From Cytophagia bacterium (GTDB taxonomy: Bacteria; Bacteroidota; Bacteroidia; Cytophagales; Cyclobacteriaceae): a DNA stretch of 36,194 nucleotides. The stretch lies in the NCBI GenBank assembly GCA_013373005.1, contig JABXIP010000175.1:1-36194 (forward strand), in the 5' to 3' direction. Every line of letters begins with the position of its first letter. Positions within the stretch are counted from its first letter, which is position 1. The position numbers were made by a program, and so were the translations under genes. Of the stretch, positions 22,366 to 27,667 are shown one piece after another. The notes beneath the pieces are model-generated. The model worked only from the letters and a program-made list of their open reading frames with translations. It had not been told where the DNA came from and ran no database searches.

Positions 22366-24153
22366 ATGGAGAGAATTCGGAATTTCTGCATCATTGCGCA
22401 CATTGACCATGGTAAAAGTACTTTGGCTGACAGACTACTTCAGCACACTGGAACTGTGACCGATCGTGAGATGCAAGATCAGCTGTTGGATGATATGGAT
22501 TTGGAGCGTGAGCGTGGTATTACTATCAAGTCGCACGCCATCCAAATGAATTATAAATATAAAGGTGAGGAGTATATTCTCAATCTAATTGACACTCCCG
22601 GTCACGTTGACTTTTCTTATGAAGTGTCTCGTTCCATTGCGGCTTGTGAGGGTGCCCTGCTTATTGTAGATGCTTCTCAAGGAGTGGAAGCACAAACCAT
22701 TTCCAATCTTTATTTGGCTCTTGAGCATGACTTGGAGATCATTCCGGTGCTAAACAAAATAGATCTGCCAGGTGCAATGCCTGAGGAGATGAGCGATCAG
22801 GTGATTGAGCTTTTGGGTTGCGATAAGGAAGATATTATTCTGGCAAGCGGTAAAACCGGTATCGGAATTGATGAAATTCTTGAGGCGATTGTAGAAAAAA
22901 TCCCTGCTCCACAAGGAGATCCTGAAGAACCACTTCAGGCCATGATCTTCGATTCTGTTTTCAACTCTTACAGAGGAATTGAAGTAATCTTCCGTGTTTT
23001 CAACGGAAGTATTAAAAAAGGAGATAAGGTAAAGTTCGTGAATACGGGCAAAACCTATGATGCCGATGAAATTGGTGTTCTCAAGTTAAAGCAGTCTCCT
23101 CAACAAGAAATTAAGGCCGGAAATGTTGGTTATCTAATCTCTGGAATTAAGGTGGCCAAAGAGGTGAAGGTGGGTGATACCATCACTCACATGGATAGGC
23201 CTACGCAAAGAATGGTAAAGGGCTTTGAAGATGTGAAGCCGATGGTGTTTGCCGGTATCTACCCGGTAGATACTCAGGACTTCGAAGAGCTGAGAGCCTC
23301 TATGGAGAAGCTTCAACTGAATGACGCATCACTTGTTTGGGAACCTGAAACTTCAGCCGCACTTGGCTTTGGTTTCCGTTGTGGATTCCTCGGTATGCTT
23401 CATCTGGAAATTGTGCAGGAACGTCTCGAAAGAGAGTTCGATATGACCGTAATTACTACGGTGCCTTCGGTACAGTTTCATGCCATTATGAATGATGGCT
23501 CTGTAAAGAAAATCAATGCCCCTTCAGAAATGCCTGAGGCAAACGCCATGGCTCATATGGAGGAACCTATTATTCGTGCTCAGATCATTTCTAAAGCAGA
23601 ATATGTCGGTGGAATTATGGGGCTTTGCATGGACAAAAGAGGTGTTCTTAAGAATCAGGTTTACCTGACTTCAGATAGAGTTGAACTGACTTTTGAAATG
23701 CCTTTGGCAGAGATTGTATTCGATTTCTTCGATAAACTAAAAACCATTTCAAGAGGGTATGCTTCTCTAGACTATGAACTGATCGGTTTCAAACAGTCTA
23801 ATCTGGTGAAGCTTGATATTCAATTGAACGGAGATAAGGTAGATGCACTATCTGCCATAGTTCATAGAGATAAGGCTTACGAGTGGGGTAAGAGACTTTG
23901 CGAAAAGCTGAAAGAGCTAATTCCACGACAGATGTTTGAGATTGCTGTTCAGGCATCCATTGGAACAAAAATCATTGCCAGAGAAACCGTGAAAGCCTTG
24001 CGTAAAAACGTGTTGGCCAAATGTTACGGTGGCGATATTTCTCGTAAGCGTAAGCTTTTGGAGAAACAGAAAAAGGGTAAGAAAAGAATGCGTCAGGTAG
24101 GTAATGTGGAGATTCCGCAAGAGGCCTTTATGGCGGTACTAAAACTGGATTAA
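22366..24153 (+). CDS. lepA: Translation elongation factor 4
   Basis: [63 protein letters not shown]. Confidence 0.99.
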
Positions 24154-24154
24154 T

Positions 24155-25036
24155 ATGAGCTATCAATTGCTTGATGGGAAAGCAACGGCCCAATCGATAA
24201 AAGATGAACTAGCCGGAAAAGTAAGTGAAATCAAGTCTAAAGGAGGCAAAGTGCCACATCTTGCTGCCGTATTGGTAGGAGAAGATGGTGCTAGTAAAAC
24301 TTATGTAAATGCCAAGGTGAAAGCCTGTGAGGCGATTGGTTTCGGATCTACCCTAATTCATTTGCCTGAAGATACTTCCGAAGAGGAAGTGATGGCAACC
24401 GTAGACAGGTTGAACAACGATCCGGAGATTGACGGTTTTATTGTTCAGGTTCCTCTACCTAAGCAAATAGATGAGCAAAAGGTAGTGGAGGCCATTCTTC
24501 CTGAGAAAGATGTTGATGGTTTCCATCCATCTAACCTGGGTAAAATGTTGCTCGATCTTCCAACACTTCTTCCTGCCACACCTAAAGGAATGATGTTGTT
24601 AATGGAAAGAAACGGTATCGATACTTCGGGTAAACATTGCGTAGTGATTGGCAGAAGTCATACCGTAGGAACACCTATTAGTGTCTTGATGTCAAGAAAC
24701 TCAAACCCTGGGAATGCAACGGTAACGCTTTGTCACAGCAGAACTCAGAACTTAGCAGAGATAACCAGACAAGCAGATATTCTGATTGTAGCTATTGGTA
24801 GGGAAGGATTTGTTACCGCAGATATGGTAAAAGAAGGAGCTGTGGTGATTGATGTAGGAATACACCGAGTTCCGTCAACAGAGACCAAGTCCGGATTTAA
24901 GTTAAAAGGAGATGTTAGGTTTGATGAGGTAGCGCCAAAATGCAGCTACATTACACCAGTTCCAGGTGGAGTTGGACCAATGACCATTGCTTCATTGCTT
25001 TGGAATACCTACTTGGCCAACCAGAAATTAGTTTAA
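24155..25036 (+). CDS. folD: Bifunctional methylenetetrahydrofolate dehydrogenase/cyclohydrolase
   Basis: [44 protein letters not shown]. Confidence 0.98.
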
Positions 25037-25054
25037 CACATATTCCTCGATTGT

Positions 25055-25121
25055 CGTCATTCCCGCGTAGGCGGGAATCTCCTAAATGGATAGGATATCC
25101 CCGATCAGGCCATGGATGACG
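25055..25121. repeat. CGTC-type REP-like palindromic dimer
   Basis: CGTC-ATTCCCGC-GTAG-GCGGGAAT perfect 8-bp hairpin, a spacer, then a degenerate inverted unit ending GATGACG. Confidence 0.8.
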
Positions 25122-25144: not shown

Positions 25145-25175
25145 AGCAGTTTCAACACCTGCTATAAAAAATTGA
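25145..25175 (+). promoter_or_regulatory. preQ1 class I riboswitch aptamer (compact variant)
   Basis: AGCAG-TTTCAACAC-CTGCT-ATAAAAAA-TTGA: 5-bp P1, loop starting TT and ending AC, ATAAAAAA tail, P2 pseudoknot TCAA/TTGA; directly upstream of queE. Confidence 0.8.
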
Positions 25176-25177
25176 TT

Positions 25178-25807
25178 ATGACAGAAAACAAACAAACAGC
25201 CGAACTCAACGGCAAGCTTCCGGTAATGGAAGCATTTTATACCATTCAGGGTGAGGGTCATTTCACCGGAAATTCAGCATACTTTATAAGACTTGGCGGC
25301 TGCGATGTTGGCTGCGTTTGGTGCGATGTAAAGGATAGTTGGGAAGCTGCAAAATGGCCGCTTCAAACCATTGAAGAAATTGTTGATGGTGCCAGGGAGC
25401 ACAAGAGTAAATTGGTGGTAGTTACTGGTGGAGAGCCTTTGATGTACAATCTCGATGAGCTGACAGATTCACTAAGGTCTTCAGGTTTTCACACCAATAT
25501 TGAAACTTCAGGCGCTCACCAATTATCAGGCACCTGGGATTGGCTCTGTTTCTCTCCAAAAAAGTTTATGAAACCCAGGTCGGAGTTTTATGATACGGCA
25601 GATGAACTGAAAGTCGTTATATACAACAAGAGCGATTTTAAGTGGGCTGAGGAACATGCAGAGAAGGTGAGACCAGAGTGTTTATTGTACCTTCAGCCGG
25701 AGTGGGACAAGTCAGAAAAGATGCTTCCACAAATAATTGAGTACGCAAAAGACAACCCTCGATGGAAAATATCGCTACAAACACATAAGTTTATGCAGAT
25801 TCCTTAA
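25178..25807 (+). CDS. queE: 7-carboxy-7-deazaguanine synthase (radical SAM, queuosine pathway)
   Basis: FYTIQGEG, CDVGCVWCD (CX3CX2C), VTGGEP, IETSG, SPK, LQPE, SLQTHK. ATG 25178 preferred over the in-frame TTG 25172. Confidence 0.95.
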   Translation: MTENKQTAELNGKLPVMEAFYTIQGEGHFTGNSAYFIRLGGCDVGCVWCDVKDSWEAAKWPLQTIEEIVDGAREHKSKLVVVTGGEPLMYNLDELTDSLRSSGFHTNIETSGAHQLSGTWDWLCFSPKKFMKPRSEFYDTADELKVVIYNKSDFKWAEEHAEKVRPECLLYLQPEWDKSEKMLPQIIEYAKDNPRWKISLQTHKFMQIP

Positions 25808-25810
25808 AGC

Positions 25811-27667
25811 TTGAGGTTCTTATTTATCATATCATTCCTATTCATTGCTTTGGCTGTTCAGTGCCAGGAGCAACTACATACAAAAAGAGCCAAGCTAATT
25901 GACGCTTATGGTGAGGCCAAGGAACTCGTAAGGATTGGTAATCTGTATCAGTCCATTGAAATACTTACAGGCATACTCGATAAGGACGATAGTTTCGATG
26001 AGGCCGTTATGCTCATTCATGAGGTGTATATCAAAAGAGATGAGCCCAACAGGGCTAGTGCTATAATCTCACAATATGCATCTGAATTAGAGCCAGCTTT
26101 CTTGAATCGCTTGCTACTCATTCAGGCTAATTATAAATATCAGTTTGGAGAATATGAAGAGGCTCAAAAGCTACTAAGCAATGTGAATGGCGAGGTGTAT
26201 GATATCAGCGCAGATAGGGTTGAATTTCTTAAACAGTCCATTCAATTTTCGCTGGAGCAACTAAATGAACTTGCGGATATTGAATTTGAGAAGCTGCCCA
26301 ATCCCATTAATGAGTTCGATATGCAGTATTTCCCATCCATTACAGCCAAGAGCCGAATAGTCTTTACTGTGCGAGATCGATTGGCAAGGGGAAATGAAGA
26401 TTTATATACAGCATACATTTATAAAGAGGGGATTTGGTCTGAGCCGGTAAGTATTTCTGGCCAGATTAATACCGAAAGAAACGAAGGAACAGCCTCTATT
26501 TCTGCCGATGGGAAAACCTTAGTTTTTACAATCTGTAATAAGCCGGGTAATATTGGAAGCTGCGACTTATATATTTCTTACTTCAAAAATAATGACTGGA
26601 CAAATCCTGAGTTGCTTGGGCCGGAAGTGAATAGTGAGGCCTGGGATTCACAGCCATCGCTAAGTGCCAGAGGAGAGACTTTATATTTCGTCAGTGAACG
26701 CGAGGGAGGTTTTGGAAAACAAGACATTTGGATGAGCCGAAAAATGGGAGAGGGCTGGTCTCCGGCTGTTAATCTGGGAGAAAGCATTAATACTCCGGAA
26801 GACGACTGTTCTCCTTTTATCTATTTAGATGGAAAAACACTTATCTATTCAACTAGAGGTAGGGTTGGGCTTGGGGGCTACGATTTATTTAAGTCAGTTC
26901 AAGATGCCAATGATTGGTCGGCTCCTGAAAACCTCGGCTACCCCATAAATAATGCATTCGATCAAGTAGGCTACTGCATTTCTGCGGATCGTTGGGCCTA
27001 TTTCAGCTCTAGTGAGGCGGGAGGAAGAATTTTTCTGCAGCGCTTTAGGGTGCCAGACTCTTTGGTGCCGGAGGTAGACCTGGGAGATTTAATTGATGCT
27101 TACGGAAAGGTTGTTGATGCCTCGACCGGAGAGTTATTGGCTGCCAAGGTATACCTGATTCATGAAGGAGATACTGTGGAACGAGATGTCGAAGATGATG
27201 GTCAGGTGCTTTTGGGCGATGATGAATTCAGCTTCGCGATAGCCAAACGAAAAGGCTACAGAAGTTCTCAATTGAGTCGTACAGACTTTCTTAAAGATTC
27301 TACCCTAAGATTGACTCCTTTCAAAGCAGGCGAAGATCTTTTGGAGAAGCCAATTCCATTTCAGTTTGATAGCGATGTTCTTTTGGAAGAAGCATTTCCT
27401 GAGCTCAATAGAGTTGCACAACTTTTATTAGATCACCCCGAATTAGAAGTTGAAATCCGAGGATACACAGATGCTTCAGGCAAGGAGTCTTATAACCTGG
27501 GACTTTCTGAAAGACGGGCAAAAGCTGTCTACCAATACATTGTCGAGAAATTGCATAATTCCGATAACCTGTCTTTTAAAGGGTATGGAGAATCTCATCC
27601 AATTGATACCCGAATTGGGGGATTGAACCGAAGGGTTGAAATAATTACACGAACGGTCGTTAGGTAA
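25811..27667 (+). CDS. OmpA-family protein with TPR-like N-terminus and PD40 repeats (PorE-like architecture); TTG start
   Basis: Signal peptide, PD40 repeats (W..P.NLG..IN, ISADG), C-terminal GYTDASG..YN.GLSERRA..V and NRRVEI. Confidence 0.88.
   Translation: MRFLFIISFLFIALAVQCQEQLHTKRAKLIDAYGEAKELVRIGNLYQSIEILTGILDKDDSFDEAVMLIHEVYIKRDEPNRASAIISQYASELEPAFLNRLLLIQANYKYQFGEYEEAQKLLSNVNGEVYDISADRVEFLKQSIQFSLEQLNELADIEFEKLPNPINEFDMQYFPSITAKSRIVFTVRDRLARGNEDLYTAYIYKEGIWSEPVSISGQINTERNEGTASISADGKTLVFTICNKPGNIGSCDLYISYFKNNDWTNPELLGPEVNSEAWDSQPSLSARGETLYFVSEREGGFGKQDIWMSRKMGEGWSPAVNLGESINTPEDDCSPFIYLDGKTLIYSTRGRVGLGGYDLFKSVQDANDWSAPENLGYPINNAFDQVGYCISADRWAYFSSSEAGGRIFLQRFRVPDSLVPEVDLGDLIDAYGKVVDASTGELLAAKVYLIHEGDTVERDVEDDGQVLLGDDEFSFAIAKRKGYRSSQLSRTDFLKDSTLRLTPFKAGEDLLEKPIPFQFDSDVLLEEAFPELNRVAQLLLDHPELEVEIRGYTDASGKESYNLGLSERRAKAVYQYIVEKLHNSDNLSFKGYGESHPIDTRIGGLNRRVEIITRTVVR

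Follow-up and report, generated by a model that had tools for sequence, protein, structure and literature searches.

The window analysed here, a stretch of 36,194 nucleotides from a Cytophagia bacterium of the family Cyclobacteriaceae (contig JABXIP010000175.1), contains the gene run lepA, folD, queE and a PorE-like gene, which are separated by 1, 141 and 3 nt, respectively, and likely form one operon (Table 1). The top NCBIfam matches of the queE product are five QueE models, every one of them below cut-off, and its sole PDB relatives are three QueE structures. Directly upstream of queE is a 31-base motif (25145-25175, plus strand) that ends two bases before the ATG at 25178 and consists of a 5-bp stem (P1) closing a 9-nt loop (25150-25158), an A-rich tail and a final TTGA, in agreement with the initial annotation of this DNA, which described these bases as a preQ1-I-like riboswitch. 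The hairpin by itself is weak (-4.5 kcal/mol, z -1.8, with 13 of 200 shuffles equally good), so that the single sequence offers little proof and the support has to come from conservation. Sequence comparison places the REP-like repeat in the folD-queE gap outside the switch, since it is missing in relatives whose folD ends 6 nt upstream of P1. The repeat has a weak match to Rfam FtrB (E 0.003) and five partial copies at other places in the host genome, and across the genus the gap is filled by varied repeats.

Table 1 Predicted aptamer, its parts and the neighbouring genes
Feature	Position	Strand	Remark
lepA	22366..24153	+	1 nt upstream of folD
folD	24155..25036	+	upstream gene in likely operon
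REP-like inverted repeat	25055..25121	.	between folD and motif; takes up most of the folD-queE gap
type III-like preQ1-I aptamer (predicted)	25145..25174	+	position n = 25144+n; numbering as in the E. coli 30-mer crystal construct
P1 5' strand	25145..25149	+	G5 = 25149 = pocket floor
U6, U7, U8	25150..25152	+	predicted ligand-contact and ceiling positions
P2 5' strand (C9 A10 A11)	25153..25155	+	sits where type III has the anti-SD
L2 (C12 A13 C14)	25156..25158	+	C14 = 25158, predicted by homology to E. coli C14 to read preQ1 through Watson-Crick pairing
P1 3' strand	25159..25163	+	
A-rich L3	25164..25171	+	-14 to -7 of start codon; contains A25-A27; A27 = 25171
P2 3' strand (U28 U29 G30)	25172..25174	+	-6 to -4; in place of type III SD bases AGG
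queE, radical SAM 7-carboxy-7-deazaguanine synthase homologue, 209 aa	25178..25807	+	putatively regulated gene
PorE/CHU_0125-like OmpA-domain gene	25811..27667	+	3 nt downstream of queE; matches below cut-offs

The motif is confirmed as real and conserved. Our family sample comprised 121 Cyclobacteriaceae genomes, one per genus, with QueE in 115 of them, and 110 queE leaders of 209 nt were examined; 34 carry the motif (two of these from the window's genus) and 76 do not. Within that genus it is present in all 30 leaders examined, out of 35 QueE loci, amid divergent flanks, so that the proposal of a conserved preQ1-I-like pseudoknot ahead of queE holds for the genus and for part of the family. 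None of the 49 queE leaders from other families has the motif (24/24 order and 25/25 class leaders negative; these were the top-scoring QueE loci per sample, and one order leader was just 59 nt long). The unpublished genomes G111 and G381 were counted only in the family and class tallies and for one motif-negative leader. An exact-pattern scan of GTDB with the family consensus, a pattern that does not match the window's variant, returned 89 matches, 88 of which sit 0-4 nt upstream of a QueE start, with one falling inside a Verrucomicrobia coding region. Organism titles were listed for 80 of these matches, and 79 name Cytophagales or Cyclobacteriaceae-type organisms; viral contigs gave no match to the family pattern. 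In the host genome (8.09 Mb, both strands) a loose structure descriptor has 87 matches, and a model built from 17 family copies, including that of the window, has a single match (E 8e-5, no other below E 3); no motif copy is present there at the yhhQ, tgt, queA, queG, PTPS or folE loci. A search of 150 class genomes with the model turned up six matches beyond the family, all of them weak (E 0.003-0.04); none has the loop or precedes queE, although distant type III relatives would escape such a search because the 17-copy model (R1) fails to detect the E. coli switch. On a FastTree QueE tree the presence of the motif needs 6 changes, and a single origin is not excluded.

The B. subtilis aptamer (type II), with which the initial annotation compared the motif, turns out to be the wrong partner: judged by sequence, the motif is most closely related to the E. 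coli yhhQ leader, a type III preQ1-I riboswitch (PDB 8FZA; PMC10622847), and maps onto it base for base. The window 31-mer aligns without gaps to the E. coli numbering at G5-C15, U6, U7, C12, A13, C14, A25-A27 and P2 positions 9-11/28-30, and both elements have a 9-nt loop that begins with UU and ends with AC, a G5-C15 floor, C14, A25-A27 and a 3-bp P2 linking loop positions 9-11 to bases past the A-run. Both also lie next to a translation start. The family consensus additionally shares C8, U11-A28 and A13, and its loop equals that of E. coli at seven of nine positions; the two that differ are the anti-Shine-Dalgarno (anti-SD) cytidines, and the E. coli SD guanines that partner them are replaced by uridines. 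In the E. coli switch, changes at G5-C15, U6, C14 and A27 are reported to cut affinity about 600- to 64,000-fold (PMC10622847), and every one of these mutationally validated pocket bases is retained in the motif. Among 121 distinct contexts G5-C15 and U6 are present in all and U7 in 119; the descriptor that defined this set demanded G5-C15, U6 and C14, and a wider hairpin check lost no leader. The assignment of C25158 as the specificity base thus stands as a prediction by homology to the conserved E. coli C14, and A27 (25171) is a predicted ligand contact given the role of E. coli A27. Features typical of the preQ1-I class are accordingly seen together: a short P1 closed by G5-C15, a U opening the loop, a loop-final specificity C, an A-run L3 ending in the ligand-contact A, an H-type pseudoknot P2 with covariation, though from few independent events, and a position ahead of a gene for queuosine synthesis or transport, as for the 88 GTDB matches before queE. 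The motif had also been described as shorter than characterised aptamers, which does not hold for type III, where the loop has the same 9 nt and 52 nM is reported for preQ1 binding by a 30-mer construct (PMC10622847); the natural E. coli switch is 36 nt, and 31 nt is unusually short among natural sequences.

There are clear differences as well. P2 is an anti-SD/SD helix in type III (PMC10622847) and takes five SD-free forms in the Cyclobacteriaceae motif; the type III hallmarks of a pyrimidine-rich anti-SD loop and an AAGG Shine-Dalgarno are absent, loop positions 9-10 being mostly purines. L3 is shorter (8-9 nt), the ATG is 0-4 nt away as opposed to 6 in E. coli, the predicted target is queE and not yhhQ, and the hosts are Bacteroidota and not Pseudomonadota. 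The window's ceiling is U8/A11-U28 instead of C8/U11-A28, position 8 being C in E. coli and most family copies. The similarity to type II (T. tengcongensis, B. subtilis) extends to AC before the P1 3' strand, one alpha site, an A-rich tail and, in 7 of 65 copies, a 10-nt loop with a C-G ceiling pair, but type II has a longer loop, in which a purine (G) sits above the ceiling, and a G11-C30 pair (PMC10622847), neither of which the motif shows, and the B. subtilis switch works by termination. Type I (Carnobacterium antarcticum) likewise has UU opening the loop, but requires a longer loop, UC before the P1 3' strand and, for its second ligand, a C in the tail; the window has AC, and the three of 121 contexts with UC lack the longer loop. 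For regulation by type I, burial of the SD is reportedly less important than formation of the pseudoknot (PMC11625349). Rfam RF00522 (PreQ1) covers the same class, yet gives no match at the site (E up to 10) or in 18 family loci (E up to 1), one of the Rfam scans having scored 150 candidates per genome. It was thus correctly anticipated that the standard model misses the motif, but we rejected the miss as a sign of novelty or as evidence against the class, since Rfam 15 also gives no match to the validated E. coli type III switch. The initial view that the class lies mainly in Firmicutes, Fusobacteria and Proteobacteria needs correction, as a review of preQ1-I switches already lists this phylum for type I and describes a similar range for type II, placing type III almost exclusively in Pseudomonadota (PMC11625349). 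Our literature search, which had few subscription papers in scope, found no description of the motif, so an earlier listing is possible. Taken together, the motif would most likely work like a type III preQ1-I riboswitch but without the anti-SD/SD feature that defines that type.

Covariation was assessed in 65 copies found via a QueE protein anchor and the P1 hairpin alone, P2 not being required in the search. All 65 have the full 3-bp P2, in five forms: AAU/AUU (27), CAA/UUG (24, including the window), AGC/GUU (7), GAU/AUU (6) and AAC/GUU (1). In 2000 shuffles of the tails, P2 was present in 31 of the 65 copies on average and never in more than 43. The window's tail matches the loops of other forms at just one of three positions, and reciprocally, and in the 17-row alignment 98.5% of P2 cells are paired, as opposed to 35-49% once the partners are slid. 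P1 varies at pair 4, which is G-C in 91 and A-U in 30 of the 121 contexts (35 and 30 of the 65 copies). These data bear out the initially suggested covariation of P1 and P2; of the 4-bp P2 proposed at the same time (TCAA/TTGA), three pairs hold in all 65 copies, whereas the fourth is present in 39 overall and in 23 of the 24 copies of the window's variant. The seven AGC/GUU copies also have a fourth pair. The counts overstate independence, as the two-sided P2 changes derive from few lineage events, and a register shift, rather than three substitutions, may have given rise to the window's form. P2 is a mere 3 bp and AU-rich in most copies, and the loop has 9 nt in 53 and 10 nt in 12 of the 65. 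At the ceiling, C8 occurs with U11-A28 in 31 copies and U8 with A11-U28 in 24, including the window. Position 8 thus changes with the ceiling pair. In the window's variant it may be part of a U-A-U triple, analogous to the C-G-C ceiling triple of T. tengcongensis; alternatively, it could form the fourth P2 pair.

An intriguing characteristic of the hosts, not remarked on in the initial annotation, is that they mostly lack the enzymes expected downstream of QueE. The genome containing the window (98% complete) has two FolE-like genes, two PTPS-family genes, TGT, QueA, QueG and YhhQ, and QueC and QueF were not found in it. The TGT has Cys and Val pocket residues, presumably involved in preQ1 selectivity, that align to those of the Z. 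mobilis enzyme. Four single-contig genomes of the genus gave merely N-terminal or partial PP-loop matches to QueC. Among the 121 family genomes, QueC is present in 3 and QueF in 8, and none of the QueF genomes carries the motif, so the textbook feedback loop is broken. Of 151 Bacteroidia genomes, 147 have QueE homologues, 11 have QueC and 15 have QueF. In this sample the whole class thus shows a gap from 7-carboxy-7-deazaguanine (CDG), the QueE product, to preQ1. A similar gap concerns the substrate supply of QueE: neither host PTPS paralogue (G000:C204:4180-4587 and C482:8243-8686) has a canonical QueD motif; both carry CxxxxxHGH, which has been assigned to PTPS-II (PMC5041015). Genomes of such gene content have been classed as preQ1 salvagers (PMC10570037), and YhhQ is present in 54 of 55 genomes tested and in 38/38 motif genomes tested, so that preQ1 import is possible and this test does not force a de novo route. 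The queE neighbours in 84 loci are only folD, lepA and the PorE-like gene, with no candidate for the missing steps. As side observations, the QueF-like genes of the family (L266-L273) occur in genomes without QueC and, in 8/8, lie between the two parts of a methionine synthase (metH) that is split, and the QueC-like gene, in the two of three cases inspected (L263:282-2744 and L265:1468-3275), adjoins a PfkB/nucleoside-2-deoxyribosyltransferase fusion, with a nitroreductase also beside it in L263; from its gene content this looks like a defence-type cassette and not like queuosine synthesis.

A preQ1 sensor on queE, if true, would imply that QueE still feeds preQ1 despite the rarity of QueC and QueF, and the step from CDG to preQ1 might then proceed via LuxE-like and LuxC-like enzymes. 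The host has one gene of each kind (G000:C403, 1814-2803 and G000:C199, 3330-4028), divergent in sequence and unlinked to queE; the LuxC-like gene is divergently oriented from a 4Fe-4S ferredoxin in 3/3 loci. A LuxE-like orthologue is present in 3/3 motif genomes and was not found in 2/2 QueC+QueF genomes, a small set of kin that are not independent. By Pfam, LuxE is matched in 1 of 9 QueC+QueF class genomes versus 50 of 142 others, again with kin that are not independent; the totals (51/151 class, 26/121 family) are underestimates, since three missed genomes have the orthologue. A LuxE/LuxC-like bypass would fit this small test, although no aminotransferase to complete it turned up. The same gene content could also suggest that the fold senses another 7-deazaguanine, such as CDG, a 7-formyl intermediate, preQ0 or queuine, given how widespread QueE is relative to QueC and QueF, that the ceiling bases of the window's variant differ, and that three copies have CUC rather than YAC in L2. 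We consider this unlikely, as all direct type III ligand contacts are retained, including G5, which recognises the aminomethyl group through its O6 and so accounts for a reported 133-fold discrimination against preQ0 (PMC10622847); moreover, a carboxylate would probably face the phosphate that binds the amine, and the YhhQ of the motif genomes makes preQ1 importable.

With preQ1 as the predicted ligand, the start region suggests how the motif could act. The initial annotation did not mention the missing Shine-Dalgarno: there is no SD-like 4-mer between L3 and the ATG in any of the 121 contexts, and the ATG follows the motif after 0-4 nt in each of them. In a crude set of 872 host starts, SD-like 4-mers are not enriched either (46 vs 42), and adenine is enriched across -14 to -3 genome-wide, reaching 0.42-0.50 at -13 to -10. 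Initiation in Bacteroidia is described as depending on upstream adenines and the absence of structure (PMC6847099); for F. johnsoniae, A-3, A-6, A-12 and A-13 favour initiation and structure lowers it (PMC6847099, PMC13000457). The predicted pseudoknot spans -33 to -4 relative to the queE ATG. We infer that the motif, an H-type pseudoknot-compatible RNA, would bind one preQ1 as in E. coli type III, that the ligand would lock the pseudoknot across the A-rich initiation region just upstream of the AUG, and that queE translation would be shut off by burial of this region, without any Shine-Dalgarno pairing. Overall, preQ1-dependent translational repression of queE is the probable function. Against this reading, a fold model without pseudoknots assigns P1 a probability of just 0.26 in the window, where a non-conserved helix over the AUG competes; in 44 of the 65 copies the value lies above 0.5.

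Transcription of the motif is expected from -7 boxes upstream and, in 8 of the 30 genus genomes, from a folD gene that ends 6 nt ahead of P1. A sequence fitting the consensus for the Bacteroidota -7 box lies within 60 nt upstream of 18 of the 34 family copies; among the 76 leaders lacking the motif, 9 have one anywhere in their 209 nt. No such box is present in 28 further genus leaders, so that the motif is likely operon-internal there. A terminator reading was rejected, since no U5 run follows the motif in 65/65 copies. Rather than at initiation, bound preQ1 might still act by making the polymerase pause, by altering access for Rho or by changing the cleavage and stability of the mRNA, as pseudoknot-stabilised pausing has been described for the B. 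subtilis aptamer (PMC11625349) and an operon-internal site would suit such a mode. This seems quite improbable to us, because the short spacing to the ATG, confined to 0-4 nt, fits a ribosome-footprint constraint and there is no terminator downstream.

Translational repression without SD pairing would be of wider interest. A 2024 preQ1 review predicts translational riboswitches in non-SD bacteria, names them as yet to be found and says that searches would miss them (PMC11625349); the motif provides a concrete 31-nt candidate with a homologue of solved structure, making that prediction testable. In addition, the exchange of the anti-SD/SD helix for other pairs, with the pocket kept, amounts to a natural experiment in which occlusion can be told apart from SD sequestration. 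More tentatively, and at somewhat less than even confidence, the motif could represent a fourth preQ1-I subtype, a natural riboswitch of ~30 nt that regulates translation by SD-blind ribosomes solely through masking of Kozak-like adenines and the start region, with the orphan queE as genetic evidence for a QueC/QueF-free route from CDG to preQ1 in most Bacteroidia via LuxE-like and LuxC-like enzymes.

The conservation of P1 goes beyond what pairing needs, with pairs 2, 3 and 5 invariant in all 121 contexts, and there are only three two-sided P2 types. Both points could be explained by a protein-binding site or another ligand-independent element, e.g. an autoregulatory operator, that resembles an aptamer by convergence. 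However, type III P1 likewise has highly conserved G-C pairs (PMC10622847), and a base-for-base pocket match at a queuosine gene is jointly improbable by convergence, which makes such an element very unlikely. A chance hairpin next to a phylum-typical A-rich initiation region, to which the weak folding and the genome-wide adenine enrichment could point, has a negligible probability and is already refuted by the comparative data, i.e. exact conservation amid diverging flanks, 34 occurrences where the descriptor would give ~0.25 by chance in 110 leaders of 209 nt, and the concentration of 88 of 89 matches at one gene. Among the minor variants of the aptamer, seven copies from two genera (L123, L124, L128, L130, L135, L141 and L195) have a 10-nt loop, four pairs in P2 and C-G at the ceiling. 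Three copies of the window's genus (L142, L143 and L145) have L2 = CUC, with a type I-like UC, and in two copies of another genus (L154 and L157) U7 is changed to C or G together with a G8-C31 pair.
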